Of a stretch of 64,000 nt of DNA, positions 32,025 to 55,753 are shown in pieces. Positions within the stretch are counted from its first letter, which is position 1, and the number at the start of each line of letters is the position of its first letter. Source of the stretch: an uncultured Clostridia bacterium (GTDB lineage Bacteria; Bacillota; Clostridia; TANB77; CAG-508); NCBI GenBank assembly GCA_934133005.1, contig CAKPAI010000002.1, positions 132,657 through 196,656 on the forward strand, in the 5' to 3' direction. The notes beneath the pieces are model-generated. The model was not told where the DNA came from. It did not search any database and saw only the letters and a list, made by a program, of their open reading frames with translations. The position numbers were made by a program, and so were the translations under genes.

Positions 32025-32541
32025 ACTCTTTATTTACTCTATCTTCCGATATCAAATCTATATCTCTTAGGAATATGTATGCTATTAGCATTAACACAAA
32101 TACAACTAAACATGTCTTAATTGTTAAAATTACAATAGAGTACTCAATATCTGCTAAATAATTATCCATTACATATACAAAGTATATCATTACAATCTGC
32201 ATCGCTGTACAAATTACTTGGTATACAATTCTTTTTCTAGTTATTATTACGTTTATTGCCGTCAATATAACAAGCATTATAAAACATACCCACATAGAAA
32301 ATTCTTGTATTGTTATTATAGCATAACATGCCAGAAATGTCTTTAGTATGACTATAGAAATTTTTAAAATATCAATTTTTTTCATTCTCAAAAATAGTCC
32401 ATATATGAATATCTTTGATTTTTTATCTTGCCTAAAGTTTCTTATTGCTAGATAACTTATACCTCCAATAAGAAACATTAGTACTAAGAAAGATATGAGT
32501 AGCCATCTAGACTCTTGTATATAATATAATACTAGTTCCAT
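31951..32541 (-). CDS. hypothetical polytopic membrane protein (F1-like ATPase locus)
   Basis: 4-5 predicted TM helices. Follows the epsilon-like gene after a 25-nt gap. Confidence 0.5.
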   Translation of the reverse strand: MELVLYYIQESRWLLISFLVLMFLIGGISYLAIRNFRQDKKSKIFIYGLFLRMKKIDILKISIVILKTFLACYAIITIQEFSMWVCFIMLVILTAINVIITRKRIVYQVICTAMQIVMIYFVYVMDNYLADIEYSIVILTIKTCLVVFVLMLIAYIFLRDIDLISEDRVNKEFEKEKGSANKVGKQNKEITEQKKN

Positions 32542-32566: not shown

Positions 32567-34190
<1,624 letters not shown>

Positions 34191-37317: not shown

Positions 37318-37575
<258 letters not shown>

Positions 37576-37618: not shown

Positions 37619-39151
37619 TTAATAATTTATTATTTTTGAACTTAAATATTTGTTTATCTCTTGTCCATTATATTTTAAATTTTGTAGTTCTATTTTTATA
37701 GCACCATTTGAAGTTTTATACTCATTTGGTATAGCAAAACTACCTGTATAACCGTTAACACCTGCTTGTTCTAGTTCACTGCTTGTAAGTGTTATAATGT
37801 TATCTGCAGTTTCTTGATTATTTACATACACTGCAATTTCGGCTCCAGAATCATACACAAATTCACTATCTAATTTTAATGAATAATATACTTTATCTGT
37901 TGATACTCTTGTAATTTTCAAACTTTCCACTGGAGATTTAGTTCTAGTTACCATAGTATCTTCAATCATTTCTTCTACAGATGCGTCTGCAAATATTGTT
38001 TTATATCCCATTTCAATATAATAGTTAGTATTTGGAGAAAGTCCTGTTACTCTATAAGATGTATTTGATTTATCAAGTGAAATATTGTATGGTGTTATAT
38101 TATCACCAGATATTCTTAGATATACAACATTATATTTACTTTCAGGGTCAGTTACTGAATAATTTACATCTATGTAAGTAACTCCTGAACTTAAACTATT
38201 TAATTTTATGCTTTTTGCAAGTGTTGCGTCATCTTTCTTGCCACTATTGCCATTATATATACTATCAAATCCTGCTGCGACATCTTTTATCCATTTATTT
38301 AAATCATCTACCCAAGTTGTATCCATTTTAGTTCCAGGAGTAATATTGCTATTATTTCCAACATTTCCTGTTGTTCCCGAACCACCATTTATAATAGTTG
38401 TAGATGAATTATTATTATTTGTAGTAGAATTAGATGCATAATTTCCACCTTGATTTGGAATTGTGTTTTGATTTTCTTCAGTATTTTTCTCTTCTTCTTT
38501 TTCTACTTTTACATACTCGTTTGTACTTCCAAGTATCCTTTTTAAATTGATTGATGCTTCTTCTTGTTTAAATGTAAGTTGTTCATTTGCAACATCAAAA
38601 TCAAAATCGCTTGTACTTATAACCATTTCATTTATAGTTTTAGCATCAATTTGGTTATTTAATAATTGAGCATTTCCTAATCTGTCCACTATTACAATTA
38701 AATAATTTTTAGTAGATAGTGAACCTGTGTTGTTTTCTATGTTTGGAGCTACTATCAAATATTTTCTATCTGCAATTTTATAAAATTTACAATCATTGGT
38801 TCCATTAATTGTATTGTAGTTGGTTAGTTTATTAACATTTCCTCCTTCGAAGACTTGGTAAAAGTCTCCGAAAAGAGTTAATGAATTTCTGTTTTTATCA
38901 AATGCTACTGAATAGCTTCCTAAATTGTATTCTTTGTCCGTTTGGCTTTCTTTTAAATAATATCCACCTGTCCATTTTTTAGACACTGTTCCTATATTTT
39001 CCAGCTCTATATAATTATAATCAGAGTCATATACACATATAGAACTTGATACTTCATACTCTGTTTTACCATTTTGCAATACTATAACTACTGCTCCTGC
39101 AAGAATTAGTAAAATTATTATTACTATAAACGTAAATATTGTAAAATTCAT
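37619..39151 (-). CDS. membrane-anchored surface protein with FN3-like domain, paralog of the N-terminal module of the giant proteins
   Basis: ORF 37619..39178 (TTG). The RBS-supported ATG at 39151 begins MNFTIFTFIVIIILLILAG (TM). KIADRKYLIVAPNIE matches KISATKYLILANNMK of the 1950-aa protein. Shared N/T/G-rich linker TNNNNSSTTIINGGSG. FN3-like LSPNTNYYIEMGYK. Confidence 0.65.
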   Translation of the reverse strand: MNFTIFTFIVIIILLILAGAVVIVLQNGKTEYEVSSSICVYDSDYNYIELENIGTVSKKWTGGYYLKESQTDKEYNLGSYSVAFDKNRNSLTLFGDFYQVFEGGNVNKLTNYNTINGTNDCKFYKIADRKYLIVAPNIENNTGSLSTKNYLIVIVDRLGNAQLLNNQIDAKTINEMVISTSDFDFDVANEQLTFKQEEASINLKRILGSTNEYVKVEKEEEKNTEENQNTIPNQGGNYASNSTTNNNNSSTTIINGGSGTTGNVGNNSNITPGTKMDTTWVDDLNKWIKDVAAGFDSIYNGNSGKKDDATLAKSIKLNSLSSGVTYIDVNYSVTDPESKYNVVYLRISGDNITPYNISLDKSNTSYRVTGLSPNTNYYIEMGYKTIFADASVEEMIEDTMVTRTKSPVESLKITRVSTDKVYYSLKLDSEFVYDSGAEIAVYVNNQETADNIITLTSSELEQAGVNGYTGSFAIPNEYKTSNGAIKIELQNLKYNGQEINKYLSSKIINY

Positions 39152-39207
39152 TTTATTTCCTGCTGCTAAGTTTCTCAAATGGTCTCACCTCCTATTTTCT
39201 ATATTCT

Positions 39208-42200
39208 CTAATTATTTTTGTTTATATATGCTGTATTATTTATTGTGCCTACTAATGTGTTTCCTACAAACAAGTTCATTTGAATTGTATACGTTCCGCT
39301 TGACTTGAATGTCTCTGGTAATATTACTTTATAATATGAAACTCCAGAATTCTCGCTATCTTCTTCTTGTCTCCACGTAGGTGTAAATGTACCACTTTGT
39401 GTTTGGCTATTCGTTAAATTATACATTGTGTATGTTATTTTATCAATTTTTGTAATATTGTAATAGCTATCATAGAATCTCATTTCACAAGAATTTTCAT
39501 TTTGTACTAATGCTGTACTTCCTATTGCAACATCTTGATCATTTTCAATCTTACTTATACTATATTTTTCTTCTTTATCTTCTGTATTTCCATCATTGTT
39601 CCTGTCATATTTTAATTTTATAACTGCTATATAGCTATAAGTTCTATAATCAATACTGCTTTGTTGTACATACACTGAGAAATTTGTTCCATAGTCATTT
39701 ATATTGAATTTTTTCTCAGTTATAGCACTTCCTCCAATTGGAGTTGAATATATTGGAACTTCATTTTCTTCTGTAAATTCTGGAGAACCTCCTTTATATC
39801 TATATACATGTAATTCATATTCTCCATATTCTTGTCCTTGAATCATTGCATCTGGATCTTGAACGGTAGTTGTTACTCTGATGTAATCAATTTCATTATT
39901 ATTTTGATTTACTTTTTGTCTTCTCATTGTCAAACCTATCTTTGGCTCCTGCAATGTATCTAAAGTAAATTCTGCTTCTTCTGTTTCAATTTCAACAAGT
40001 GCTCCATTATAAGTAACCATTGGTGTTATCTTTAATATATATTTCTTATTTATGCTGAATGTATTATAATCTGGACTTATTGATATTTTTTCATTTATAG
40101 CATTTATTAAGTTTTCTGTTTCATATTTTGCATTAGTTACAATAAGCTCTCCATTTTCATTTATCTCATATTTTGAATTTTCGCCTCTAACTACATTATT
40201 ATCAGTAAGTGGTACTAATGTTGTACCATCAGCTTCATAGAATGCATATTTTGTAAATTCATACATATTTGACCTGTTTTGAGTTATTTTATAATCTATG
40301 TCTATATACTTTTCTTTATATTTTACAGCATCATACTTAATTGATATTGAATTAATTCCTATAGTTGCTAATGTTTCAAATTGATAAACAGCTCCAACTT
40401 CTTTTGTATCCATATCATATAAATATACATCGCTTACACCATCATTGTATCTGAATCTTATATAGTAATATTCAGCAGGTGATAAATCATCTAATACTAT
40501 AGTATTTTCAAATTCATTTTCTTGTAATAATTTTGTTATTACTGTATCACTTTTCCAATTTGGTTTAGCATCTTTATCTTTTGTATGGTATATCTCTATC
40601 GTTATTCCACCTGGAATTGTCATACTATTTGGTTTTATAAGTGAAGCACTAATTTCTGCTTTCTTTATACTTGTTTCTATTTTATTCATTTTTATTCCAG
40701 CTCTTAAACTTTGAATTGAAATAGTTTTTTCTGTTGCAAATTCTGTTTTTGCAATTTCTTTTTGAGTTATTATCATATCATTTTGTTTTAAGCCAGATTC
40801 AGTATATTGCATACTTAAAGTTACACCAGCAGTTCCATTGTTTATTGCATCAATGTTTGATATTCCAAGTCTTGCTTCGCTATTCTCTGCTGAGAAAGAA
40901 TAGTTATACATATTTCCTCCAATTTTATCTACTACTTCAAAGTTTGCATCATTTAAAGCTACATATGCGCCATTTGCATTTGTATATGCTGAATATTCAA
41001 ATGCATTTGTAGGAGCATATCCAATTACTCCATCATCATAATATAGAATTACTTCTATATTTGATTGTTTTCCTATAAAACTATCAAAATTACTATTTGT
41101 AGCTGCAAGTTCTAGTAAATCAACATCAAAGTAATAGTTATCATCATCGTTCACTTTTAATAACTTACTTGTCATTGTTTCTCCATTTTGTGTAAATTTA
41201 ACTTGAGCTGCTGCAATTCTTGAAGCTTTATCTCCGCTGAGCTTTAACCTAATACTATTAGGACTTTTATCATTATCATAAGCTATGCTTTCAATACTCA
41301 CATCATTACAATTTACAATTCCTTCAAATTTTTGTGTAACCATTGTTACAGTTTGATATACTTTTCCATTTTTTGCTTTATTTACGTTTTTATTATAGCT
41401 TAATGTAAATGTAACATTTTTCTGTGGTATATATATGCTTAGATTATCTAATTTTCCATCAGTTTTTACTTGAATATCACTATTTTGTATTGAACCATTT
41501 ACAGCAAGTATTAAATGAGCATATTCTCTTGTATCATTTTCGTTATATTGTAGAGCCGCATCCACATCTTTGCAAGAATATTTGTATGTTACTGTCGTAT
41601 CATCAGATGTTATTGGATACATTACAAAACTTGGATCTTGTTTTTGTGGATATAATATTTCTGTCTTTAATGTTTGTGTTGTATATTTTGAACTACCATC
41701 ATCTTCAGTTATATTAAGTGGCCATATTATATCATTTCCATTATTATCAGTATATGTTACTGTATATGAGAAGATATATCCATCACCTCTATGCAATTTT
41801 CCTGTTTCATTATCTTTTTCGATTGTATCAATTGTACCATAATCCAATTCGAATATTGCTGATGGAGCTTTATCTTGTGTCACAAAATTTAGTGTTTGTT
41901 TTAATTGTACTCTATTTCCATTATCGTCTGTTACATATTTTCCACTCTCATCTTTTTCATATATTGGATTTCCTTCAGCATCCCATACATAATATGTTAC
42001 AGATTTAGCACTTAAAGAACCAGTATTTGCAAACTTAGTTGATACAAAGTATCCAACTGCTGTGTTGTCTAATAAATTACTATCTTTTTCTAGACCATAT
42101 CTATTGGCTTCAGCATTTGTAATTACAGTAGCTGTTGGTCTTGCAGTATCTTCTGTAATATCTGCAGTCGTTCCTTTTCCTTTCACTATTATATATGCTG

Positions 42201-45060
42201 CTGTATATGTTTCTTTTGTTGATTTATTAGTATATGTTGTATCTCCTGTATTTATATCATCATCGTCAGCAGATTTAACTGGAATTTTATTTGTATACTG
42301 TGTTCCATCAACAGTAGCTGTTACAACAACTTGATAGTTTGCTTCAGTATAACTACTTTCATATCCACCACCTATTAAAGATGGAGTTACAACTAAGCTA
42401 TTTTCAAAGAATAAGTCTTGCAAACTGGCTACTTCTGTTGGATATTTTGCATTATCCACAACTTGATCAAAATTATTATTTGTTATTGTTCTTGACCAGC
42501 TATTATATTCACCACTATTTATGTCTCCAGATCCCTCATATACCATTATGTCTACACTAGATAAACTTTCTTCTGAGGAAATTGTATCAGCATCAAAACT
42601 AAGGTCAACAGTAAATGCGTTTCCAGCAGGTGCATTTTCTGGTACAGATAAATTAGCTGTTATTGGACTATACTTATCTGTTGTAATTATGCTACTTCCA
42701 ATATAAGCATTCTTATATCCTCCTGAAGTACTTTCTTCATCTTGTAAATCTACAGTTCCATATGCTGAGAATGTATATGATGTTTGTGCTTTTAATCCGT
42801 CTTTCTTATTTCCTTCTTTACCAAGATCAACGTTAATTCTTATTACACTATTTCCATCAACATCTTCTGTCTTTCCATATAATTTTCCATCTCCATATGC
42901 ATCAAGATTTGTTATTTTTAAATATGTTGTATTTTCAACTACGTCACTATAATAGCTTATTGTTAATGGATTTTGGTCATCTACTACTATTGTATTTTGG
43001 TTATCGATTATGTCTAAGTATCCAATTATTTCTGTTGTTTCAAAGTCATTGTTTGTTGCTTTTGTAAATTTAACCGTTGGGAAAGTTTTTCCATTTAATG
43101 AGAAAGCTCCTGCAATTGTACTCTCTACATCAACATATTTCTCATTGTCATATGTTGTCGCAATTACTTTAAATCCATATGATTTTCCTCTTATAATCGA
43201 ATCATTTGATTGCTCATTTCCTACATCTATAACAATATTTCTATCTGTTGTTTGTTTTTGATAAACAGGATTTTTTACATCATATGTTGTCTCATATAAA
43301 CCATCATCATTTAATATAGTTTTAAATTCATATACATAATATTCATATGATTTAATCGCAGAATCTTTATCTGTTACTTCATCAATATATAATGTAAATG
43401 TTCCATCTCTTTTATTTACAGCATAATTTAGCTTATCAATGCTTGCTTTTTCTTTTAAAGTTTGGCAGTTATAATATATTGCCCAATTTTCACCTTCTTG
43501 AACTGCTCCATTGTAACTTATATTTTTTACTTTTACTATATAATTTGTATTTGCCTCAAGTCCAGTAAATTCAACTTCTTCAATTCCGCCACTGTTTTTC
43601 TTTGTTTGATTTTGATTTATAATTTCATTACCATTAGCATCTAATAAATATATTTCCGCACTATCAACATTTGAATCTTTAAATTCTAGATTGAATGTAA
43701 GTGAATTTGCAGTATAAACTTCCTTGCTTATTTCAACACCTATTGAAGATGTTACAAATGTTTTATATAAGAAATTTTTTGTATATACATTGTCATTTAA
43801 AGTATATGTTGCAGTTGCTACTATTGAATAGCTTGTATCAGGTAATAATGTTTGAACATCTATTGGTATACTAAATGTTCCATATGCCTCTTCATCCATG
43901 TATACAACTTTTCCAGTTGCATTGTTTGTAATTTTTATAGTAACATTATCATTTTTTGATAATAAGTCTTCATCATCAGTAATTTGAACTGTTGCTTTTA
44001 TTCCTACTGAAGATATATCCATATCCTCTAATTTAAACTTAGGTTCAGTCTTTGATACTGTTTCATCAACTTTTGTTTCATTATTTTGTATATATTGATA
44101 AATAATATTTACTATTTCAAGGTTTACTTTAGTTTCATCATTTTCTATATTTGTATCAGTTGTTGTTCCTGCATTTGAACCACCATTTGTTCCACCGTTT
44201 CCACCATTTATTATTGTTGTTCCTGAATTGTTGTTATTTGTAGTATTTGTAATTGTTGTGCTACCGCCATTTCCGCCTGTAGTATTATCTATTTCTGTAT
44301 TTTCTTCTGTATTAGTGTTAGTATTTTTATTTTCATTTAAATCAATTAATGTAACATTATCATTAGAATTTATTACCATATCTTCTAAACTCATTTTGTT
44401 TTCATCATTTACACTAACAATTTTTGTTCCTAAATTTAACTTAACACCACTGCTTAATTCTATAAAAGAGTCTGAAGAAATTGTTTGATAACTGAATTCT
44501 TGATTATAAATATTAACAACCTCGCTATCAGAATACTCTACTTCTAGATATCCTGTTACATCTTTTGTATTTCCATTATTAAGTGTTACTTTCATATTAT
44601 TTGCTAAAATCAAATACTTTGTAGCAGATATTTTCCATATTGCTTCTTCAAAATTAACATCTTCTTTTAAATTTTGTACAGTATATCTATTTGAGACTTT
44701 TTTTATCTCTTTATTTGAAGCTACATTATAGTATACAATTGGATCATCATTTATTTTTGACAAATCTAATAAAACACCATCTTGTAACGATATAATATTT
44801 CCACTTGTATAGTGAATAAAATTATCATTACCTAGTGTAACCTTTGTTCCCTCTGTATCATTAAAAACTATTTGTTTATCATAAGATGTTGTATATTTCT
44901 CTTTTTCATAGAAATAATACCTATCTGATGAACCGTTTAAAATATATCCAGATTCAGCAAATTCCATCCTCTTACTTTTTTGTACATTTATTACATTAAA
45001 TGTAAGTACTGTTCCTAATATTAGTCCTATCATTATAAAAAATACAATATACTTTTTCAT
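39208..45060 (-). CDS. giant secreted/anchored surface protein (1950 aa) with multiple FN3-like/Ig-like repeats
   Basis: AAGGAG RBS, N-terminal signal/anchor MKKYIVFFIMIGLILGTVL, N/T-rich linker, repeated L-P-x-T-x-Y-x-[IV] FN3-like strands (LLPDTSYSIVATATY, LEANTNYIVKVKN). No C-terminal TM. Confidence 0.8.
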   Translation of the reverse strand: MKKYIVFFIMIGLILGTVLTFNVINVQKSKRMEFAESGYILNGSSDRYYFYEKEKYTTSYDKQIVFNDTEGTKVTLGNDNFIHYTSGNIISLQDGVLLDLSKINDDPIVYYNVASNKEIKKVSNRYTVQNLKEDVNFEEAIWKISATKYLILANNMKVTLNNGNTKDVTGYLEVEYSDSEVVNIYNQEFSYQTISSDSFIELSSGVKLNLGTKIVSVNDENKMSLEDMVINSNDNVTLIDLNENKNTNTNTEENTEIDNTTGGNGGSTTITNTTNNNNSGTTIINGGNGGTNGGSNAGTTTDTNIENDETKVNLEIVNIIYQYIQNNETKVDETVSKTEPKFKLEDMDISSVGIKATVQITDDEDLLSKNDNVTIKITNNATGKVVYMDEEAYGTFSIPIDVQTLLPDTSYSIVATATYTLNDNVYTKNFLYKTFVTSSIGVEISKEVYTANSLTFNLEFKDSNVDSAEIYLLDANGNEIINQNQTKKNSGGIEEVEFTGLEANTNYIVKVKNISYNGAVQEGENWAIYYNCQTLKEKASIDKLNYAVNKRDGTFTLYIDEVTDKDSAIKSYEYYVYEFKTILNDDGLYETTYDVKNPVYQKQTTDRNIVIDVGNEQSNDSIIRGKSYGFKVIATTYDNEKYVDVESTIAGAFSLNGKTFPTVKFTKATNNDFETTEIIGYLDIIDNQNTIVVDDQNPLTISYYSDVVENTTYLKITNLDAYGDGKLYGKTEDVDGNSVIRINVDLGKEGNKKDGLKAQTSYTFSAYGTVDLQDEESTSGGYKNAYIGSSIITTDKYSPITANLSVPENAPAGNAFTVDLSFDADTISSEESLSSVDIMVYEGSGDINSGEYNSWSRTITNNNFDQVVDNAKYPTEVASLQDLFFENSLVVTPSLIGGGYESSYTEANYQVVVTATVDGTQYTNKIPVKSADDDDINTGDTTYTNKSTKETYTAAYIIVKGKGTTADITEDTARPTATVITNAEANRYGLEKDSNLLDNTAVGYFVSTKFANTGSLSAKSVTYYVWDAEGNPIYEKDESGKYVTDDNGNRVQLKQTLNFVTQDKAPSAIFELDYGTIDTIEKDNETGKLHRGDGYIFSYTVTYTDNNGNDIIWPLNITEDDGSSKYTTQTLKTEILYPQKQDPSFVMYPITSDDTTVTYKYSCKDVDAALQYNENDTREYAHLILAVNGSIQNSDIQVKTDGKLDNLSIYIPQKNVTFTLSYNKNVNKAKNGKVYQTVTMVTQKFEGIVNCNDVSIESIAYDNDKSPNSIRLKLSGDKASRIAAAQVKFTQNGETMTSKLLKVNDDDNYYFDVDLLELAATNSNFDSFIGKQSNIEVILYYDDGVIGYAPTNAFEYSAYTNANGAYVALNDANFEVVDKIGGNMYNYSFSAENSEARLGISNIDAINNGTAGVTLSMQYTESGLKQNDMIITQKEIAKTEFATEKTISIQSLRAGIKMNKIETSIKKAEISASLIKPNSMTIPGGITIEIYHTKDKDAKPNWKSDTVITKLLQENEFENTIVLDDLSPAEYYYIRFRYNDGVSDVYLYDMDTKEVGAVYQFETLATIGINSISIKYDAVKYKEKYIDIDYKITQNRSNMYEFTKYAFYEADGTTLVPLTDNNVVRGENSKYEINENGELIVTNAKYETENLINAINEKISISPDYNTFSINKKYILKITPMVTYNGALVEIETEEAEFTLDTLQEPKIGLTMRRQKVNQNNNEIDYIRVTTTVQDPDAMIQGQEYGEYELHVYRYKGGSPEFTEENEVPIYSTPIGGSAITEKKFNINDYGTNFSVYVQQSSIDYRTYSYIAVIKLKYDRNNDGNTEDKEEKYSISKIENDQDVAIGSTALVQNENSCEMRFYDSYYNITKIDKITYTMYNLTNSQTQSGTFTPTWRQEEDSENSGVSYYKVILPETFKSSGTYTIQMNLFVGNTLVGTINNTAYINKNN

Positions 45061-45267
45061 ATTTTTTTATCTCCTTGCATTTGTTCAAAAATCTTCTTTT
45101 ATAGCTTATCATACTGGTTTTGAAATTTCAATACACATTTTTTCCATTTTTTTTAATTTTATACCATTAATGTGTAAACCTCTCTATTTTTCAAGCATTT
45201 TCGAGCTTATTTTGCAATTTCTCTCATTATTTTTTTTTCATTTCATTTTTGTTACAAAAAAATTACA

Positions 45268-45295
45268 CTATCCTCATTGTGATAGTGTAACTTTA
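45268..45295 (-). terminator. rho-independent terminator after the 3484-aa gene
   Basis: TTACACTATC-N8-GATAGTGTAA 10-bp stem immediately after the stop, followed by T7 on the minus strand. Confidence 0.6.
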
Positions 45296-45298
45296 ATA

Positions 45299-48200
45299 TT
45301 ATCTATTACTTTTTCTATACATTACAATCAAAGCTAAAATTATTACTAAAACTATAATTGAAATCAATATAGTTCCTATATTTTGCATTGTTTTCTTTCC
45401 AGTAGATATGTTATTGTAATAGTTTGTTAATTCTTGACTCTTATTTATCTTTGCATTTTCTGTAGTTATAGTTGATGTTGTTGTATCTAAAAGTTCATTT
45501 GCACTATATACTACATAGTTTTGTGAATTTGAATCATATGCAGTTACATAACCTGCACTTGCGTTATTATTGCTACTTTGATTTGAGTTCGAAGGTTTTT
45601 CTCCTGTTGTATTTGTCTCAGTCATAGTATTATTCGAATTGCCACTATTTCCTGTTTCACTATTTTCAGTATTTTGCTTTAATTCAATTTCACTTGTTGC
45701 ATCAGCAATAGATTTTTTCTCTAATTTTTGTACTAACTCTTGAGCCTCTTTATAATCTTTTTCATCAATTTTATATGATAGATTTTCTAAACTCAATCCA
45801 TTTAATAAGTAACTTACAAAGTTTGTACTTTCATTATTTACTCCATTATCATATATTTCTTCACCAGTTATATAATTAAATCCATATACATTTCCTGTCG
45901 CAGAATATATTAAAACTATTTCACTGTCATTATTTAAGTTATTAGTCATTTGTATAATCTTTTCATTTTTAAAGTTTACTGGATATTTAATATCAGTTAG
46001 AAGATTATATATTTTACCATCAGTACCAAGAGTTGATTCATACTGCTTATTATTGTATGAATCTATTACTACAGAAGTTCCTACATTAGAGAACTTTCCA
46101 TCAATTACATACATAGTACCTTTTTTGATAAATATTTGTCCATCTTTGAATACATTTGTTCCATCTTCTTCTGTTACTTTTGTACAATGATAGAATGTTT
46201 GAACTTTTTTACCTAAATATGTGCTTTCTGTTATTGGAGTAATATTATCTAATAATTTCATTCCAGATACATTTCTAATATTTTTCATAGAACTTAAATC
46301 ATAAACATTTCCATTTGAATCTAGTACTTCGCTCTCATATAAGTTTGTAAAAGTTCCTTTTATTGTTCTTTTATTTGAATTTAGACTTCCATCTGATAGA
46401 TAGAAATATTCATCATTAGATATTGCAAGCATATTTCTTATATCATCTGCTTCAAAATCTTTTGTATCCCAATAATTAGCATTTGTAATTCTTATAGTAA
46501 ATGGAGATTTAAAATCATATTCAAAAGTATATACTCTTTGATTTATTTTTTGCTTTTCACTTATAATTTCGCCATTTGAAGTTACAGAAAATGTTGCACT
46601 TGTATTTGCCTTGCTAAATTCAATATTTATTTTATCTGCTCCTACAGTATATACATAAACTTGTGGCAAGTCTTCTTCCAATTGATCATCCTCATAATAT
46701 GCTACTGGCATAATCTCATCATCTAAAAGCATTAAATTTGCTAACGTTGCTTCACTTGCTAGTTGTTCACTAAACAATCTTATTGTAGCTTCACTATAAG
46801 TTATTGTTCTTTCTGGTATTGCAAATTCTTTAATAGTTACTCCCATTTCACTCCAATAAGTTTGTGCTGAATAATTTGGTTTTAGTGTTGGAAAATATCC
46901 AGATTTATAATTGTATCTTCCTGTACCAAAGTTTAAGCCTTCATTTCCTACAGCAACTTGTCCTATAACAGTAGAACCAATTATATTTCCTTCTTCATCA
47001 TACTCATACTCGTATTCATCCTCATAGATTCTTACATTTTTAGTATAATTACTTACAACTTTTAGCTCATCACTAGTTATCATTTTATAGTTTTCATTTT
47101 CTTCTACAATTCCTGATACTTGTGTTTTTGTAGCTAATAATTGGTTTTGCAAATTGCTTCCATTATATATGTAAATATTATTCATATATTTTGCTTGAAA
47201 TAACCCATAGTCAGAATTTTTAATTGATGCAATTCCCATATCAGCATATTTGCTTGATGTAGATATAACATCTGTTGCAATTAAATTACACTCAATAATA
47301 TTATATTTTTCAACATCAGGATCATAATTTATTTCTTTATATATTTCACCAATTAAGCCTCCTGCTGAACTTTTAGCAGATATATTTATTGTCTCATCAC
47401 TGTTTGCAATATAGTTATATTTTATTGTAGCTTTATATTGTAAGTTATTTAATTTGCTATTATCAAAATATCCTACTATTCCACCGGCGCCTTCTCCTGT
47501 TGCTGTTACATCAGTATTTACAGCATAACAGTATTGGATATTTCCAACTTGGCTTCCTCCTGCGATTCCACCAACATAATTTGCTCCTTTTACATAGCTA
47601 TCTTCTATATATGAATGCCACAAATAGTAATTGCTAGATTTTATTGAATTTGCTGAAGTTCCAACATAACCTGTATAGTATCCAACAATTCCTCCAACAT
47701 AATTTCCTCTTCCTGTAACTGTAGTATTATTAGTTACAGCTCCACCATGTATTGTTCCTCTCTCATATCCTGCAATTCCTCCAACATAACCAGAACCAAT
47801 AATCGTTACATTTGATACATATGCTCCAGCAGTTGAATAATTTGAATTATTAGATGTTGATATTGAAGTATTAGTATACTCATTATATCCAACAGCTCCA
47901 CCTACATAATTTCCAGAAGCCGTTACTTGGCAGTTCTCAACTTTTAATTCTTTTATTCTTCCATTTGTCCATCCAACAGAACCAGATACATAGTTTCTAC
48001 CTATTATTTCTTGGTTTGTTCCTGTAGATAGTGAGTTATTTAAAGTAGCATTATTGTTATTTAGTCTTCCTACATTTCCTGCTACATAATCTAATCCTTT
48101 AATATAATTGTTTCTAGATACAGGGTTTGAAACTGATGACCAACCAGTATTTCCATAATTTCCACCTACATAAGAACCCGTTGCACTCTTTGTTTTGTAG

Positions 48201-51200
48201 TCACTTACTTTATTTAGATTATTTGTTGCAATTATTATGTTATTTTCTGAAGTTGCACTTATGCCACTCCATCCTCCTTGTTGACCATTGTTGCCTCCAA
48301 CATAATTTGCTCCAAGTATAATATTATTTGTTGAAACCATATTATTGGTTGAACTTGCACCATTTCCACAATTTGCACCTACATAATTTCCAGTTCCTAA
48401 AATTATACTATTGCTTACTTTTGAGTTATAGAAAGTTGATCCACTTCCACCATATTCACCAATCGCTCCTCCAATGATACTTCTTCCTTTTATTAAGTAA
48501 TCGGTTTCTTCATCGCTATCTTTTTTACCATTTTCAGAATATTGATATGCATAAACTCCATTGATTGTATTTTGTGTACTTCCGAATATTCCACCAGCAT
48601 AATCGCCCGATGCAGTTACCTGTAAATATGTTCCTTTTATGTTACTTGTTGATCCCAATGACGCTGTATATCCACATAATGAACCAACATAGCTTTCACC
48701 TGTAACATTCATTCTATTTAGTGTAATATTATTAAATCTACCAGAAACTGCTCTTGATACTACTCCGACGTAATTCTTTCCGCCTTCGATAGTTATGTTA
48801 TCAAAAGTACAATCCTTCATTTCTCCTCTTAGTATGCTAATGATTCCACTATAATTTCCAGTACATGTAATCTTAGAATCTTTAAAGTGAATATTTTCGC
48901 AATTTGTTTTTATTTCTTTTATAAGACCAGAACTATCTCCTACTGATATATTTACATTTTTAAATGAATATTCTGTACTTCCTTCTAGTCTACCAATTAC
49001 AACATTTGTTACAATATGATCAACTGTACTAAAATCAATATCTCCAGTTATTCTTACATTTTGACCTATGTAATTTTTTCCTGAATTTTCAAAAAAGTCA
49101 TTCCACTCATCAGCATTTGAAATACCTTTATATAATGTAACTTTTATTTTCGTTGATATTTCTTTTTGTACAAAGTTTGTTCCATCTCTTGTATAAATTA
49201 TATTTTCAATTTTATAACTTTCAAAAGCTTTATTTGGAGTTGCAACAAATTTTGCTATTGTAAGTCCTGTTCCTTCCTCCTTTGATGTAGTCCAGCTTCC
49301 ATCAACAACAGACATATCATTGTCTTCTATTGTTACACCTGTTAAACTTAAATCATTAGGATTTTCAAATTTCATTTCTACTGTAACATTTGTTTTGTCT
49401 TCTGATGGTGTAGAAGTAATACTATATAGTTTTAAATCATTATCAAGTGTAATTAGTTTTTGATTTGCAAGCAATCCACTCTTTGATGTATTCATTAATT
49501 GTGGGAAATATCTATTATTTAATAAATTCATTTCTTGACCATTTTGAACTATCGTTCTTGCAAAATTATCATCAAATTTTAACAAGTTTGCAAAAGTATT
49601 GTCTGTAAATATTTCATTATCTTTTAATAGTTTAGTTGCTCCATATAAATCTGTTTTCTTTTCGCCACTCATTAATTGGTCTGCATAAGCATAGTTATTA
49701 TATGAAGTAGTTCCGCCATTGTTTCCTAAAATTCTATTGAAGTTATATATACCTGTGTTTCCTGCTATATAAATATTTCCTAAGAATAAACAGTTTTGTA
49801 CTCCTGAAGCACCAGTATCACTATAACCTGCAATACCTCCAAAGTAAATATTTCCACTTGTAGTTTTTGTATTTAAGTTAATCAAACTATAACAATTCTT
49901 TACATAGCAAGAACCATATTTTCCAAATCCTAAAATTCCTCCTGCATTTGTAAATGTATTTATCCTTCCTGTAGTATAACAGTTTTGAATATAGAATACT
50001 GGTGAACCTGCTTTTACTCTTTCATCTGAGTCATGTCTTTTATAACCAACAATTCCTCCGATACCATCTACTTGAGTTACACTCGTTGCTTCAACATTAT
50101 AATTTTGTACATAACAGTTTTGTATATATGTAGTAACACCACCAAATGCATATAAGTTTCCAACAATTCCTCCTGCATCAATATACAATGAATTTGGAGA
50201 ATTAAATGTCAAATCAAATCCTTGAACAGAACAGTTTTGTACTTTTATACTGTCAGCTGGATTACTACTTCCACTACTAATTGAACCTACTATTCCTCCA
50301 TATTTTCCATTGTCTTTATTATATGACACATTCATTTCCATATTTGATATACTAACATTATCAATTAGTATATTATCAGTCATATCTGCTCTAGCAATCA
50401 TTCCTGCATATTGAGAATTTGTATTTATTGTAAAGTTATTTATATTAAGATTTTTTATTTCACCTTCTGCAAATCCTGCAAATAACGATTCTGTTCCACT
50501 TATGTTATTTATAGTGTGCACTTTTCCTTCATATTCGCCATCTAAGTAGCCTGTAAATGTTCCTGTTATATATGGGCTATATTCAGAATCAGCAAAATTT
50601 AAATCATTAACTAATCTATAGTTTTGTATTAATCCACTTACGCCATTTTCATCAGTTTGATCTATATTTGTCCAGTCTTTTTCGTTTGCTATCTTCTTTA
50701 CAAATCTTACATCAATATATCTTGTTCCCATTGCTTCATTTTCACCATATACTGATGTTTTTATGACACCATTTGCCTGCTTACTTTGAATCTTTGATAC
50801 ATTGTAAGTATCTAAGAATGAAGTTGGATTATTTAATAACATATATACTGTACTTACTCTCTTGCTATATGATTGGCTTAAAATTACTTCATCCAAATAA
50901 TCAACATCAATTACACTTATTGTTGTTCCTGCAGGGTTATAAACTCTAAATGAAACAAGTTTTGTATTTTCATCGGTCAAATCAACATTATTTAATGTAA
51001 TATATGAATTTATTTCATTTCTAACCTTATCTGTTATATCTAATGAACTTATATCATTATTTTCTATTACAGAACCTGAAAGTATATCAATTATTTCATT
51101 ACCTGTAATATCTATTTTTACATTGTCTTGTTTAGGCATACAATAATTTAGTTTTAATTGAGGATAATATCCATTTGAAACTAAATTTTCAACAGTAAAG

Positions 51201-54200
51201 TTTTTATAACTATTAGCATTTAATATTACTTCTTGAACCCCTGGTTCGTAAAGTCCTGTTGATGCTGTTTTAGTATTATAATCACTGTCATCATACATTA
51301 CTTCACAGAAATAGTAACAATCATTTACATTTGTTCCTGCATTTTTATTCAAAATACTTGGTCCTAAATATTGTTCTTTATTTTCTGCATCTAATTCTCC
51401 TGAATATTCAAAATCTTCATATGCAGTAATAATTGACATTACAGAATATACATTTCTTATAGTAGCACTGCATGATGGTCTTGATATTATCTGTCCTAAG
51501 TTATTAGTTACAGGTGGATATCCTAAATCATATACAATATTTCCTGCATAAGAATATGTTCCACTTGTATGATTTATTTTTATTGTTGTTGTATTAAATA
51601 TATTTTGCATTAGTCCATTATTTCCATCTAATTGAACTGCTACTCCTCCAATATATCTATAGTCATATGCAGCTATATCTCCATATGTTTCAATTCCTTG
51701 CCCATAAATATATCCATTTTGTATTGTTCCATGTGAATATAAGCAAACTCCTGCTATATATTGTGATGCATATAATGGTACTTCATAATCTATGATAAAG
51801 TTATCTATTTTTCCTGAATTGTCATATCCAAGTAAAGCGACATTTGCTCTTGCTTTTTGAGTTGCCTTCTTTAGTCTAACAATTACATTATCTATGTTTC
51901 CTTCATTATATAAGAATAGTGAATAATATCCATCTTCTTTTGCAGCTGGTACTTCAACAATTTTATCTCCAACTACAGTTACTGTCATTTTAGGAGATAC
52001 ACTATTTAAAGAATAATCTATTACAATATTCTTTAAATCAGCTTCTGCTCCTAATTTATAGAATATATATGAAGTTACTTCTCTTTTTGTTGTTAGCGAA
52101 TAAGTATCTTTAGTTATGGTTTTTCCATTGAAGTCTATTGTTCCATTAAATGTTATATTTGGATTTCCAAATGTATAAGATGTTGCTCCTCCAGCATTAC
52201 TTAAATCTATATCATTTAATAGTATATAATTTCCATTAGGTTGTATCTCTAGAAATTCATCAATTGTTGATATACTCTTAATTTCAGTTTTAGCATTTAC
52301 GTCATATTCAAAAGTTACTTGTGACAATACATATTCCCTACTATATTGCCTTATTATAAGCTCTACTGTGTAATCAATAGTATCATTTCCACTTTCTTCA
52401 ATAATATATTTTTTCACTTCTTCGATCATAGTTACAGAATCATAATTATAATCAAATTCTTGTACTTTTGTTTGATTTGAAGAATTTTTAGAAGTTATTT
52501 TTATATAATATTTACATGAATTTGCACTTTCATCAAATGTAACATGTTTTTCATCTATAAATTTAACATCCATATTTGCATAGAATGTATATTTATATTT
52601 TTCATAACTTGTCGCAGAATTTCCTTTTTCTGCTTGTAAATCTTTTACTTTCAAATAATAGTCTTTTTGATTTATAACTTCTTCATCATCAGTTATTTTT
52701 TCACCATCTTCATTGGTCTCGCCAGGAATTATATCCACTTGTGAATAATCTTCTAGGTAAAAACCTACAAAACCATCATCTGGTACAGTTATTGTTTGTA
52801 CAAATTCTGCCCAATTATCAGTTGTTATTCCACTAAGTTCAGTTATATTTCTGCCAATTCCTTTTCCTAATTGCATATATATTTTTGGTGTTCCTGTTGC
52901 TACAGGATTGTTATCTTTCCATTGATATTGTGCCTTAAACGATAATGTAACTTTTTCACCCACATAATTTCCTAAATCATAAACATAACATTGATTTGAT
53001 AAGAATGTAATTTGATTACTATTTTCATCATATGTCTTACCATAATTATACTTAGATCTTGTTTCATAATTTACAACATCATTATCTAATACATACTCTG
53101 TCTCTAGTACACCAAATGTTTTTGCATACCAATTGTTGTTAGATGATACATCTATAAGATTCTTTCCATTATCTGCAATTTCTCTTTGAAGTCCTATTAA
53201 ATCTATACTTCCTCCAAGACCACTTGTAGTAAACTCTTTTTTACCAATTTGATAATTGTTTTGAACTTTATTAGCATTATTAGTCTCATTATACGAAGCC
53301 GCCTCACAAGTGAATGTATAAATTTCATTTTCTGTTAAGCCTTCATATGTTAATCTTATCCATCTGTTTGTAGGAATTTTAGTTGTGCTTTTTACTTCTT
53401 CTTTGTTCTCATCTATTACTTCTATAGTTGGCAAATATTCTTTTGAAAATCTGTCAACCAATCTTACTATTGTTAGATTATCAGCAACTGCTCCATCTTC
53501 ATCGTCAATATAAATATCCATATCAATTAAGTTTGTAGTTGCAATTACATTTCTTATTTGAAGGGTTGCTGTTTTCTTGTTTGTCATAAAACTATTTGTA
53601 GTATATGATGTTACAATTTCTTTTTCTACACTTCCTTGTTTTGCTACTGCCTTTAACTCAATTTTATATGTTGTATTTGATTCCAAGTTTTCAAATAAAT
53701 TTGCAATTCCATCAGTTTTTAATGAATTTATATCGTCCATAAATACTGATTTAATTTCATTATTCTTACTATCTCTTATAATCATAGTGACATTTTGTAA
53801 AATATTAACTAGCCTATGATCTGTTTTGTCTGTATTTATTGTGGTCCTTAGATTTGCACTACTTGATGTTATATCATTATCTATATCATATGTTACTTCT
53901 AATTTTAAACTACCTAATTTACTTAAACTTAATGTAGTAAATGTTGCACTTCCAATTTCTTGATCTTGTTTTATTCCATTACCATCACCTATATCAAAGT
54001 CACCAAAAACTCTAATTGTATAAGTATTTTCTGGATCTAAATCGCTAAATTCTAATTTATTATCACCTATTTCTAAGTTATCTCTTTTTACTACTTCACC
54101 ATTACTTGATAATAAAATATATCTATAATTATCTATCGTTACTTTATCTTCATTTATTAAAGATACATTTATCGTTACACTTGTTACATTTTGTGCATTT

Positions 54201-55753
54201 ACATTAACTTTTGTAGCTGGAGCTTTCTTAGAAGTTTCTGTATTTCCTGTATTATTCTTTACATTCATTTTATTTCCAGCAGTGTCATATAAGTTAATTT
54301 CGTAGCTGTACTTAGAATTTGATTTTAATCCTTCTGGCGATTGATATGTAATACTTCCTCCATTTATAATATTTCTTAATAGTCCAGAAGATATTGAATA
54401 TGTTGCTCCATTTATGATTATTTCACCTTTTGAAATTCCAAAAACTGCTTCATCTTTAATATCTGAACTAATTTTTATATCTTTTATTTCTATTTTATTT
54501 GAGTATCTTTGTCCATTTTCAAAACTTAGTTCTATTGGATTTAATATATCAATCCCTTTTGTAGTTATTTCTTGTTCATATAATGTATTTTCAATTAAGC
54601 TTCCTTCTTTATTTCGATATTGATATTTTGCAACAATTGTATATGTGGTATCTGGTAATAATTTGGTTACACTTACTGTTCCAGATGAAGTTGCAGAAGT
54701 TCTAAATGCAAGTTGTCCATTTTTATAAAAAGCATATGTTACACCCTTCATTACTCTACTTGGATCTTTAATCGACACTTCAGCATATGATGTATATACA
54801 TTAGCTGTAAATTTAGAACTTTCGACTGTAGGTGCAATCCATTTTACTTCCGGAGTAGGTCTGTCATTATTCTTATTATCATCTTCACTTGGAGTTGTTG
54901 GAATTACTTCTGTATTTGTTTCTACATTATTTTCTGGTTTTTGTTCTGTATTATTTTCTGATTCAGTATTTTTTTCAGTATTTGCCTCTACATTATTATT
55001 TTTATCTTCTCTTGGTTTGCTTTCTTTTATAATCTTTAATCCAATTAAAAATTGTTTATATGTATATTCTTTATTATAGTCTTCTAGTTTTATTATAGAA
55101 TTTTCATCAATATCAATTACTTTATTATATATAAACTCATCATTTTTTAATGTGTAGTAAGTTATAAAACTATTTGTAAAATTTATAATACTATTCATTG
55201 GAATTGTATATTCATTAAACATTGTTTTAATTTTGATTTCTTTTGCATTTACATATAAATTATCTTTGTTTTTCATTAAAATATAGTCATAATAATCAGC
55301 TCTTTCAAGAGTATTTGAATTATATAATGCCCCTGATGTAAGAGTAAAACCTGAATATCCCTCTATTTCCTGAAAATCATCAGTTATTAGAGTGACATCA
55401 GAAGATAAGTTATACACAGCTAATGATCCATTTATATATATAGGATAATTCAAATTTATATTATCTTGCTTGCTAGCACCCAAATAATATGAATTCAAAT
55501 TTTGATATATTGAATCCTGCTCACTTACCTTTAACGCCTTTACCGTATTATCTACATTAAATGTTGAATTTAATAAATTACTTGTTATATCTTTTCCAGA
55601 TACTGCATATCCATTATATTCCATCGTCATATATGGTATGAATCTCAAATATATTATATATATAACTAGCAATATTATAATTAAAAAACTTAATAATGTG
55701 ACAAAAAATAATGGTGTCTTTGTCAATTTTCTTTTTGTTCCTCTATTTTTCAT
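45299..55753 (-). CDS. giant surface protein (3484 aa), N- and C-terminally membrane-anchored, FN3-like repeats plus GLUG/beta-helix-like repeat region
   Basis: AGGAG RBS. N-terminal TM (LFFVTLLSFLIIILLVIYIIYL) and C-terminal TM (IGTILISIIVLVIILALIVMY + RKSNR). FN3-like LLPDTTYTIVAKYQY and NTYTIRVFGDFD. The central region has repeated (I/V)(Q/K)NC(Y/S) ... GGI(V/A)G rungs. Confidence 0.8.
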   Translation of the reverse strand: MKNRGTKRKLTKTPLFFVTLLSFLIIILLVIYIIYLRFIPYMTMEYNGYAVSGKDITSNLLNSTFNVDNTVKALKVSEQDSIYQNLNSYYLGASKQDNINLNYPIYINGSLAVYNLSSDVTLITDDFQEIEGYSGFTLTSGALYNSNTLERADYYDYILMKNKDNLYVNAKEIKIKTMFNEYTIPMNSIINFTNSFITYYTLKNDEFIYNKVIDIDENSIIKLEDYNKEYTYKQFLIGLKIIKESKPREDKNNNVEANTEKNTESENNTEQKPENNVETNTEVIPTTPSEDDNKNNDRPTPEVKWIAPTVESSKFTANVYTSYAEVSIKDPSRVMKGVTYAFYKNGQLAFRTSATSSGTVSVTKLLPDTTYTIVAKYQYRNKEGSLIENTLYEQEITTKGIDILNPIELSFENGQRYSNKIEIKDIKISSDIKDEAVFGISKGEIIINGATYSISSGLLRNIINGGSITYQSPEGLKSNSKYSYEINLYDTAGNKMNVKNNTGNTETSKKAPATKVNVNAQNVTSVTINVSLINEDKVTIDNYRYILLSSNGEVVKRDNLEIGDNKLEFSDLDPENTYTIRVFGDFDIGDGNGIKQDQEIGSATFTTLSLSKLGSLKLEVTYDIDNDITSSSANLRTTINTDKTDHRLVNILQNVTMIIRDSKNNEIKSVFMDDINSLKTDGIANLFENLESNTTYKIELKAVAKQGSVEKEIVTSYTTNSFMTNKKTATLQIRNVIATTNLIDMDIYIDDEDGAVADNLTIVRLVDRFSKEYLPTIEVIDENKEEVKSTTKIPTNRWIRLTYEGLTENEIYTFTCEAASYNETNNANKVQNNYQIGKKEFTTSGLGGSIDLIGLQREIADNGKNLIDVSSNNNWYAKTFGVLETEYVLDNDVVNYETRSKYNYGKTYDENSNQITFLSNQCYVYDLGNYVGEKVTLSFKAQYQWKDNNPVATGTPKIYMQLGKGIGRNITELSGITTDNWAEFVQTITVPDDGFVGFYLEDYSQVDIIPGETNEDGEKITDDEEVINQKDYYLKVKDLQAEKGNSATSYEKYKYTFYANMDVKFIDEKHVTFDESANSCKYYIKITSKNSSNQTKVQEFDYNYDSVTMIEEVKKYIIEESGNDTIDYTVELIIRQYSREYVLSQVTFEYDVNAKTEIKSISTIDEFLEIQPNGNYILLNDIDLSNAGGATSYTFGNPNITFNGTIDFNGKTITKDTYSLTTKREVTSYIFYKLGAEADLKNIVIDYSLNSVSPKMTVTVVGDKIVEVPAAKEDGYYSLFLYNEGNIDNVIVRLKKATQKARANVALLGYDNSGKIDNFIIDYEVPLYASQYIAGVCLYSHGTIQNGYIYGQGIETYGDIAAYDYRYIGGVAVQLDGNNGLMQNIFNTTTIKINHTSGTYSYAGNIVYDLGYPPVTNNLGQIISRPSCSATIRNVYSVMSIITAYEDFEYSGELDAENKEQYLGPSILNKNAGTNVNDCYYFCEVMYDDSDYNTKTASTGLYEPGVQEVILNANSYKNFTVENLVSNGYYPQLKLNYCMPKQDNVKIDITGNEIIDILSGSVIENNDISSLDITDKVRNEINSYITLNNVDLTDENTKLVSFRVYNPAGTTISVIDVDYLDEVILSQSYSKRVSTVYMLLNNPTSFLDTYNVSKIQSKQANGVIKTSVYGENEAMGTRYIDVRFVKKIANEKDWTNIDQTDENGVSGLIQNYRLVNDLNFADSEYSPYITGTFTGYLDGEYEGKVHTINNISGTESLFAGFAEGEIKNLNINNFTINTNSQYAGMIARADMTDNILIDNVSISNMEMNVSYNKDNGKYGGIVGSISSGSSNPADSIKVQNCSVQGFDLTFNSPNSLYIDAGGIVGNLYAFGGVTTYIQNCYVQNYNVEATSVTQVDGIGGIVGYKRHDSDERVKAGSPVFYIQNCYTTGRINTFTNAGGILGFGKYGSCYVKNCYSLINLNTKTTSGNIYFGGIAGYSDTGASGVQNCLFLGNIYIAGNTGIYNFNRILGNNGGTTSYNNYAYADQLMSGEKKTDLYGATKLLKDNEIFTDNTFANLLKFDDNFARTIVQNGQEMNLLNNRYFPQLMNTSKSGLLANQKLITLDNDLKLYSITSTPSEDKTNVTVEMKFENPNDLSLTGVTIEDNDMSVVDGSWTTSKEEGTGLTIAKFVATPNKAFESYKIENIIYTRDGTNFVQKEISTKIKVTLYKGISNADEWNDFFENSGKNYIGQNVRITGDIDFSTVDHIVTNVVIGRLEGSTEYSFKNVNISVGDSSGLIKEIKTNCENIHFKDSKITCTGNYSGIISILRGEMKDCTFDNITIEGGKNYVGVVSRAVSGRFNNITLNRMNVTGESYVGSLCGYTASLGSTSNIKGTYLQVTASGDYAGGIFGSTQNTINGVYAYQYSENGKKDSDEETDYLIKGRSIIGGAIGEYGGSGSTFYNSKVSNSIILGTGNYVGANCGNGASSTNNMVSTNNIILGANYVGGNNGQQGGWSGISATSENNIIIATNNLNKVSDYKTKSATGSYVGGNYGNTGWSSVSNPVSRNNYIKGLDYVAGNVGRLNNNNATLNNSLSTGTNQEIIGRNYVSGSVGWTNGRIKELKVENCQVTASGNYVGGAVGYNEYTNTSISTSNNSNYSTAGAYVSNVTIIGSGYVGGIAGYERGTIHGGAVTNNTTVTGRGNYVGGIVGYYTGYVGTSANSIKSSNYYLWHSYIEDSYVKGANYVGGIAGGSQVGNIQYCYAVNTDVTATGEGAGGIVGYFDNSKLNNLQYKATIKYNYIANSDETINISAKSSAGGLIGEIYKEINYDPDVEKYNIIECNLIATDVISTSSKYADMGIASIKNSDYGLFQAKYMNNIYIYNGSNLQNQLLATKTQVSGIVEENENYKMITSDELKVVSNYTKNVRIYEDEYEYEYDEEGNIIGSTVIGQVAVGNEGLNFGTGRYNYKSGYFPTLKPNYSAQTYWSEMGVTIKEFAIPERTITYSEATIRLFSEQLASEATLANLMLLDDEIMPVAYYEDDQLEEDLPQVYVYTVGADKINIEFSKANTSATFSVTSNGEIISEKQKINQRVYTFEYDFKSPFTIRITNANYWDTKDFEADDIRNMLAISNDEYFYLSDGSLNSNKRTIKGTFTNLYESEVLDSNGNVYDLSSMKNIRNVSGMKLLDNITPITESTYLGKKVQTFYHCTKVTEEDGTNVFKDGQIFIKKGTMYVIDGKFSNVGTSVVIDSYNNKQYESTLGTDGKIYNLLTDIKYPVNFKNEKIIQMTNNLNNDSEIVLIYSATGNVYGFNYITGEEIYDNGVNNESTNFVSYLLNGLSLENLSYKIDEKDYKEAQELVQKLEKKSIADATSEIELKQNTENSETGNSGNSNNTMTETNTTGEKPSNSNQSSNNNASAGYVTAYDSNSQNYVVYSANELLDTTTSTITTENAKINKSQELTNYYNNISTGKKTMQNIGTILISIIVLVIILALIVMYRKSNR

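Follow-up and report, generated by a model that had tools for sequence, protein, structure and literature searches.

F1-like ATPases that serve surface proteins are known from mycoplasmas, as the Type 2 enzyme of Mycoplasma mobile gliding, which works with Gli349 and Gli521, and as the Type 3 enzyme of the MIB-MIP system (PMC3369863, PMC11864180, PMC12994834). Judged by titles and abstracts, the papers found on the 'F1-like ATPase' are all mycoplasma and mollicute studies or generic rotary-motor work. We found no published description of the system reported here, in which a gene for a 3484-amino-acid (aa) protein, the giant, is followed by a cluster of F1-like genes in an uncultured human-gut Clostridia bacterium. 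Both lie in a 64,000-nucleotide stretch of contig CAKPAI010000002.1 (assembly GCA_934133005.1, positions 132,657 to 196,656), which we call the window and whose own numbering is used below. We propose that the giant would be the external working part of an ATP-driven F1-like machine, anchored with both termini in the cytoplasm, a proposal for which we see about equal chances of being right or wrong. We favour it because both ends of the giant are conserved, motor genes lie downstream, the beta-like subunit has kept its motifs and the c-like subunit has lost its carboxylate, giant and motor genes are linked across genomes, and mycoplasmas provide a precedent (PMC11864180, PMC12994834).

The M. 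mobile Type 2 'G1' motor (Gli349, Gli521, Gli123) resembles the system in the window in having an F1-derived ATPase of alpha, beta and gamma subunits with no recognisable ion-translocating Fo (PMC11864180, PMC12994834). It is thought to drive very large surface proteins held by terminal membrane helices. Both systems belong to the Bacillota/Mollicutes lineage and both would run on ATP rather than on the proton motive force, which in our case is read from the genes. The Type 3 'F1-like X0' ATPase of MIB-MIP antibody cleavage is likewise encoded by a seven-gene F1-like cluster that shows genetic linkage to surface proteins, whose function depends on it. The system in the window differs from that of M. 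mobile in that both anchors are on one protein, Gli349 presumably having an N-terminal transmembrane (TM) segment and Gli521 a C-terminal one.

Two predicted membrane anchors on the giant protein

The giant gene (45299..55753; this and all other features given below are on the minus strand) starts with an ATG that has an AGGAG Shine-Dalgarno sequence 8 nt on its 5' side. Because the open reading frame (ORF) runs for 10.4 kb in DNA of 28% G+C, it is not a chance product. A first-pass annotation, made from the sequence alone, had predicted this protein to be tethered to the membrane at both ends, by a helix behind a basic N-terminal tail (MKNRGTKRKLTKTP) and by a C-terminal helix followed by RKSNR. 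We found the ORF, its strand, its ATG start and both quoted tails to be correct. A Kyte-Doolittle scan of the whole giant showed exactly the two expected hydrophobic segments, with peaks at aa 16-34 (3.16) and aa 3459-3477 (3.35), and the third-ranked window scored just 1.04. The annotation had also allowed that the C-terminal helix might vanish on resequencing. We expect it to persist and do not take it for an assembly artefact, because an identical 3484-aa product was found in 73 blocks of the assembly collection (22 contigs with this product were read, among them two from Hadza human-gut metagenome assemblies).

The N-terminal anchor (aa 1-38; 55640..55753) consists of a basic, presumably cytoplasmic tail (+6) and a TM helix, and is supported by hydropathy, above-average conservation and an AlphaFold2 helix at aa 15-38 that leads directly into a folded beta domain. 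The C-terminal anchor (aa 3459-3484; 45302..45379) is a TM helix with the basic tail YRKSNR, supported by hydropathy, homolog conservation and an AlphaFold2 helix at aa 3459-3482 (fragment residues 1160-1183). These models were built from a 50-sequence alignment and cover the giant on both sides of aa 1150-2299; their mean predicted local distance difference test (pLDDT) scores are 81.5 and 85.2. Of the 120 best homologs, 109 retain both terminal segments, at identities as low as about 31%, and the 11 exceptions include seven C-terminally and three N-terminally truncated gene calls. When the N-terminal module by itself was the query, 64 of the 67 long representatives recovered had both segments as well. 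Among homologs, the mean charge of the N-terminal tail is +5.7 against +0.3 past the N-terminal helix, and that of the C-terminal tail +4.1 (110 homologs) against +0.6 ahead of the C-terminal helix; the positive-inside rule is thus obeyed at both ends. The N-terminal helix, with the conserved sequence FLIIILLxIYIIYLRFIPY, and the domain of about 200 aa that follows it are the best-conserved parts of the protein, with majority-residue frequencies of 0.60 and 0.67 compared with 0.50 for the giant overall.

Cleavage of the N-terminal helix as a signal peptide would leave the mature giant held by its C-terminal helix only, a difference of topology that would be compatible with any of the functions considered below. 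Some evidence points this way. Distant relatives have classical-looking N-termini, with an MKK start, an h-region of 17-20 residues and VFA|LS-type sites, and plausible signal-peptidase sites were found in 37 of 67 distant representatives. The window giant itself has a G48/A50 pair that could in principle be used as a (-3,-1) site. That pair, however, is 14 residues beyond the point where the 23-residue h-region ends and belongs to a predicted beta-strand of the folded domain. In addition, conservation of the helix sequence is above the average of the giant, and the n-region holds 6-7 K/R. A rule-based check gave the window giant an h-region of about 23-24 residues and an n-region with six K/R, and from four residues before the end of the h-region to ten after it found no pair of small residues that could serve as a (-3,-1) site. 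By these rules it falls outside the class of proteins with a cleaved Sec (signal peptidase I) signal, in which the n-region is short, the h-region has 7-15 residues and small residues occupy -3 and -1 close to where it ends. The same holds for most closer homologs, 108 of 113 being without a (-3,-1) site near the end of the h-region and five having one. We therefore consider cleavage of the window giant distinctly improbable; its N-terminal helix is probably an uncleaved signal anchor. In four distant members (P0194, P0208, P0227 and P0254) the N-terminus is short and of the MKK type, with plausible signal-peptidase sites, where the window clade has a long basic tail and a 23-residue helix. 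The family may thus have gained or lost its N-terminal anchor in the course of its evolution.

No other mode of attachment was recognised. As the first-pass annotation had stated, there is no LPXTG motif: the last 80 aa contain no LPxT[GAS], NPxTG, [SP]PxTG, NVQTG or xPxTG, and an LPXTG look-alike, NISTG, is not conserved, reading SVG, STS, STN, SKQ or SSS in homologs. The giant therefore falls outside the sortase-anchored class, and with no lipobox in its first 60 aa it also falls outside the bacterial lipoproteins. Searching the last 52 aa against NCBIfam returned sub-threshold noise only, so that none of the known models for C-terminal sorting signals applies. We also considered a type IV pilin-like signal and rejected it on reading the sequence, which has no G/F cleavage motif and no Glu at +5. 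Sequence analysis thus supports the two-end tether for this protein, for which a double anchor with both termini inside is likely, although it may not extend to the whole family.

An F1-like gene cluster downstream of the giant

The first-pass annotation had guessed that such a protein would suit an inner-membrane motor. The guess holds to the extent that genes for F1-like alpha, gamma and beta subunits and a c-ring lie 6 to 12 kb downstream and are linked to the giant across lineages; the coupling itself, that is physical contact between giant and motor and transmission of force, is what we infer. On the strand of the giant, its gene is followed by genes for proteins of 1950 and 519 aa, the c-like protein, a 273-aa protein, alpha, gamma, beta, proteins of 196, 269 and 218 aa, and then pgi.

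The alpha-like protein (444 aa; 35031..36365) matches Pfam ATP-synt_ab (E=6e-73) and has the Walker A sequence GDKRTGKT. The gamma-like protein (261 aa; 34227..35012) matches Pfam ATP-synt (E=1.5e-28) and gamma chains in the PDB. The beta-like protein (456 aa; 32820..34190), also recognised by Pfam, keeps all of its catalytic motifs, namely Walker A, the catalytic Glu and a DELSEED-like motif (DELSDED). An 83-aa ORF (37318..37569), below the threshold of at least 100 aa used for listing ORFs, encodes a homolog of ATP-synthase subunit c (Pfam PF00137, 31.9 bits against a cut-off of 24). Its Ile63 stands in the carboxylate column, aligning with E65 of I. tartaricus, D61 of E. coli and E56 of PS3 in the reference c subunits. 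This column holds I, V or A in 79 of 79 metagenomic c-like matches, with no D or E in the helix-2 core, and the carboxylate is absent from all 100 c-like sequences (21 genome-derived orthologs and the 79 metagenomic matches). The Glu or Asp in helix 2 that characterizes a genuine F1Fo c subunit is therefore missing. We further found no a, delta or epsilon subunit among the cluster proteins with Pfam and NCBIfam.

Because no a, delta or epsilon subunit was detected and the c-like protein has no carboxylate, the cluster does not, on the evidence of its sequences, encode a working ion-coupled ATP synthase, but an F1-type engine on a ring predicted to be unable to carry ions. The resemblance to a genuine atp operon is nevertheless close. 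The alpha-gamma-beta order is that of real atp operons, which distinguishes the cluster from Type 2, and beta passes the atpD equivalog TIGR01039 (480.9 bits against a cut-off of 462.85). The c-like protein keeps the cytoplasmic-loop motif, as GRNPE where a genuine c subunit has ARQPE. The 273-aa protein (36383..37204), which has an N-terminal TM segment, a long charged helical region and a conserved C-terminal globular domain, occupies the place of subunit b in the atp operon order. It belongs to no Pfam or NCBIfam family, and we take it as a candidate b-like stalk. Besides the lost carboxylate and the undetected subunits, the cluster differs from genuine F1Fo in being flanked by giant surface-protein genes and in that three subunits are below their equivalog cut-offs: alpha (atpA, 419 against 484 bits; NF009884, 437 against 554), gamma (62 against 194) and c (at most 36.8 against 71). 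Alpha is still closest to genuine F1 alpha.

The cluster is also distinct from the two mycoplasma types. Alpha is below the cut-offs of the MMOB1660 family NF045863 (384 against 600 bits) and of the MSC_0619 family NF045936 (308 against 520), and beta below those of the MMOB1670 family NF045858 (394 against 850) and the MSC_0618 family NF045934 (401 against 570). Compared with PDB chains, beta scored 313 bits against G1 beta (9io5) and 384-416 against genuine F1 beta. In the cluster we detected neither a 12-TM protein nor, with Pfam and NCBIfam, an epsilon-like protein, and we saw no N-terminal extension of beta. Pfam and NCBIfam also assigned none of the cluster proteins to a MIB or MIP family. 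Compared with Type 3, accessory proteins differ and the surface partners exceed those of MIB-MIP in size by a factor of 10 to 20. Whereas resemblance to a, b or c is absent from the X0 proteins of mycoplasmas (PMC3369863), the cluster has kept a c homolog, although without the carboxylate, and a b-like protein. Its hosts, unlike mycoplasmas, have cell-wall and sporulation genes (SpoIIP and Mur ligases), and genes of both kinds lie nearby in the window.

For the Type 2 ATPase of mycoplasmas, a part in translocation had at one time been suggested (discussed in PMC3369863). We considered whether the F1-like/c-ring complex could be an export or assembly motor, driving the translocation, insertion or wall passage of the giants as FliI/FliJ act in flagellar export. 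The cargo would be unusually large, at 3484 and 1950 aa, and the linkage described below would fit such a role equally well. However, alpha, beta and gamma are nearest to genuine rotary F1 rather than to FliI/SctN (beta scored 481 bits with atpD and 240 with the FliI model), and a DELSEED-like lever and a gamma with its globular part have been retained. Moreover, a c-ring is no known protein pore, the window contains a SecY gene, and the giants have ordinary Sec-type N-terminal hydrophobic segments. An export motor is thus improbable in our estimation, and we keep to the proposal of a machine that acts on its surface proteins.

Linkage of giant and motor genes across genomes

Twenty giant-family loci had full 10-kb flanks on both sides, and the cluster was present at 17 of them. 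The three without it (L004, L022 and L042) come from genomes that also hold other giant-family loci. Approached from the motor side, a metagenome scan with the c-like query recovered at least 189 relatives. Fourteen of the c-like loci extended for 9 kb or more in each direction, and 11 of these contain a giant homolog. In the window clade the giant lies upstream of the cluster, while in a distant clade (27-33% identity) the giant homolog lies downstream of it. Giant-motor linkage survives gene-order rearrangement across uncultured Clostridia and Bacilli. Carriers are labelled Clostridia, Clostridium sp. CAG:354, Ca. Merdicola (Clostridia incertae sedis), Ca. Coprovivens (Bacilli incertae sedis), Erysipelotrichaceae and 'Mycoplasma sp.'. 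Across the lineages, identities are 46-97% for the c-like protein but 27-65% for the giant, and alpha is 55-95% identical across loci. By these comparisons the cluster is under strong purifying selection.

The linkage bears on a further alternative, that the giant is a passive adhesin or wall scaffold and the neighbouring ATPase functionally unrelated to it, for instance a degenerate or specialized F-type enzyme. This would accommodate the giant paralogs located away from the cluster. A hairpin between the giant gene and the remaining genes would also be in keeping with it. The hairpin, identified by a palindrome scan and direct sequence reading (45263..45290), directly follows the stop codon of the giant; it is a perfect 10-bp palindrome followed by T7 on the coding strand and has the look of a terminator or attenuator. 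Linkage in both Clostridia- and Bacilli-labelled lineages despite a changed gene order would, however, be hard to explain without a shared function, and a degenerate ATPase fits poorly with a cluster that is no working ion-coupled ATP synthase yet is strongly conserved. We return to this alternative with the ectodomain.

Several other features of these loci were recorded. The metagenome-assembled genomes (MAGs) of the distant clade (CATZPY, CAMMLJ, USAE, USBY and CAAEBO; L015-L056) hold 4-7 giant-family loci each, and three tandem giants of 2852-2868 aa were seen away from an ATPase cluster (L004, 1-18559). This expansion suggests interchangeable or variable surface parts for one motor. At loci L112, L114, L118 and L123 the c-like gene stands ahead of the 1950-like and 519-like genes, at L130-L132 beta is listed before gamma, and at L112, L131 and L132 there is no giant homolog within 10 kb. 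In related genomes (L001-L003, 1650-9773) the cluster comes directly after a glycolytic operon of gap, pgk, tpi, gpmI and eno, and in the window pgi (29104-30420) follows it. The F1-like motor chain of M. mobile is reported to contain phosphoglycerate kinase (bioRxiv 10.1101/2024.06.11.597861); the glycolytic neighbourhood and that kinase may be a coincidence.

Ectodomain, accessory genes and a proposed surface machine

Between its anchors the giant is predicted to be largely a chain of beta-rich modules. A database search returned 378 relatives, none of them named, and defined a full-length family of 2800-3650 aa that extends down to about 31% identity. When aa 1-250 were searched against 1.84 billion representatives, 330 proteins were found, in which the module is always N-terminal; nearly all full-length carriers are giants of 2.8-4.4 thousand residues. 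This module includes the membrane-proximal beta-rich domain (aa 42-238; 55040..55630; pLDDT 60-91), the best-conserved domain, with an invariant YxGYA motif in its first strands. It is followed by a disordered E/N/T-rich linker (aa 245-303; 54845..55021; pLDDT below 50, conservation 0.34), which possibly crosses the cell wall, and then by an array of FN3/Ig/macroglobulin-like beta-sandwiches with a jelly-roll-like domain (aa 309-1149; 52307..54829; pLDDT mostly 80-93). Foldseek matched the array to C3/C4, alpha2-macroglobulin, fibronectin and receptor ectodomains (E down to 3e-14), and Pfam gave a marginal fn3 match at aa 517-584, the only one for the giant in Pfam or NCBIfam, neither of which assigned it to a family, Gli-type or other.

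Thirteen GG[IVLA]xG (GLUG-like) repeats, located by motif position, cover aa ~1150-2940 (46934..52306). In the modelled part (aa 2300-2940) they form a solenoid-like beta structure whose strands are short and regular (pLDDT above 90). A match to the family profile was found in PDB 3n6z, a putative IgA1 protease that we take to be a GLUG-domain structure (E=7e-6). Pfam Glug gave no match to the window giant at E<=0.01; the homologs P0066 and P0074 carry precomputed Glug (PF07581) matches. The solenoid is followed in the AlphaFold2 model by a beta-propeller (aa 3032-3302; 45848..46660), with Foldseek matches to WD40, BamB, RCC1 and Sevenless (E down to 4e-5), a helical hairpin (aa 3312-3363), a second disordered stretch (aa 3364-3399) and a small element (aa 3402-3448) that is also conserved. 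Foldseek searches with multi-domain models returned generic beta-sandwich and propeller matches and no functional lead. A flexible linker thus adjoins each anchor, and the two linkers could let a rigid body of about 3000 residues sit beyond the cell wall, tethered at two points.

Gram-positive bacteria have giant surface proteins that lack LPXTG and are anchored in the membrane by their C-terminus, such as staphylococcal Ebh/Embp. The giant resembles them in its megadalton-scale modular ectodomain and in its C-terminal hydrophobic helix and basic tail, and it resembles the streptococcal IgA1 protease/Zmp GLUG proteins in its GG[IV]xG repeats and the 3n6z match. Its beta-sandwich array, propeller and GLUG-like repeats are modules of which adhesins are typically built, which again speaks for a passive surface role. 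Unlike Ebh/Embp and Zmp, however, the giant has an apparently retained and highly conserved N-terminal helix, no YSIRK-type signal, an unrelated domain order, linkage to an ATPase cluster and no HExxH peptidase motif. The absence of HExxH also led us to reject a metalloprotease identity. Moreover, the anchor and the membrane-proximal domain are conserved most and the distal parts less, which is the opposite of what is expected of a pure ligand-binding adhesin. Taking these points together with the linkage, we judge a passive adhesin or scaffold beside an unrelated ATPase to be unlikely.

The remaining cluster genes encode proteins with hydrophobic or TM segments. Next to the giant lies the gene for a second giant surface protein of 1950 aa (39208..45060), co-conserved in the cluster and with one N-terminal hydrophobic segment, followed by that for a 519-aa surface protein with an N-terminal TM segment and an FN3-like region (37619..39178). 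The N-terminal regions of these two proteins are related (hhalign probability 96%), and G/N/T-rich low-complexity linkers were noted past this region in both. When the N-terminal region of the giant was compared with those of the 1950-aa, 519-aa and 269-aa proteins, hhalign probabilities reached 5-56% only. Beyond beta are genes for a 196-aa polytopic membrane protein with about five TM segments and no known family in Pfam or NCBIfam (31951..32541), a co-conserved 269-aa protein with an N-terminal TM segment (31215..32024) and a 218-aa protein, also with an N-terminal TM segment, which is the last before pgi (30535..31191). The 269-aa ORF is listed with a TTG start that gives it an overlap of 74 nt with the end of the 196-aa ORF (31951-32024), and the true start is probably further downstream. 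As tblastn gave no match to the 218-aa protein in related loci, its membership of the cluster is less certain.

The window is core chromosome, flanked by a ribosomal-protein operon and genes for SecY, ThrRS, HisRS, RelA, RecJ and pgi, and a mobile-element origin of the system was rejected because these flanking genes are core genes. Two ORFs without a Pfam family at E<=1e-5, of 774 aa (19927-22251) and 177 aa (23422-23955), lie amid the housekeeping genes.

In the machine that we propose, the uncleaved N-terminal signal anchor would start Sec export of the giant and the C-terminal helix would end it as a stop-transfer sequence, leaving both termini in the cytoplasm. Some 3400 residues would remain outside as a loop, comprising the membrane-proximal domain, linker, beta-sandwich rod, GLUG-like solenoid, propeller and second linker. 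The cytoplasmic engine would be an alpha3beta3-gamma ATPase on a ring of c homologs unable to bind H+ or Na+. ATP hydrolysis would make gamma and the c-like ring turn or flex against a stator, for which the 273-aa b-like protein and the 196-aa membrane protein are the candidates. This movement would pass through the membrane to the surface proteins, namely the giant and those of 1950, 519 and 269 aa, and reach their anchors and membrane-proximal domains. These proteins could then pull, reposition or cycle their exposed binding domains, in analogy to the mycoplasma gliding and MIB-MIP machines. Its output might be motility, adhesion cycling or the handling or processing of ligands.

Several observations weigh against this proposal. 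Extra giant paralogs occur away from the cluster (L004, L022, L042), and the terminator-like hairpin means that the giant need not be co-transcribed with the rest of the cluster. The candidate signal-peptidase sites of distant relatives indicate that an N-terminal anchor may be neither universal nor required across the family. We detected no similarity in sequence to gliding or X0 proteins of mycoplasmas, and all carriers are uncultured gut MAGs. Finally, a protein tethered at two points is not obviously one on which a rotating ring could do useful work.

We tentatively suggest that the cluster could represent a fourth kind of F1-derived rotary ATPase, in which alpha3beta3-gamma on a non-ion-binding c-ring is mechanically coupled to double-anchored giants. 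What is new here is the position of F1-like motor genes beside presumed surface partners in abundant, walled gut Bacillota. If the proposal is correct, this would be the first rotary surface machine driven by ATP in Bacillota that have a cell wall. It would also have survived as an intermediate between the real ATP synthase and the gliding and MIB-MIP motors of mycoplasmas. Since the c-ring and b-like stalk are recognizable, the membrane part could be interpreted against the known structure of ATP synthase, which would make the system a more tractable model both for the conversion of rotation into surface work and for the repurposing of ATP synthase. It would also give a function to more than 300 uncharacterized giants of 3000-4400 residues in human and animal gut metagenomes.

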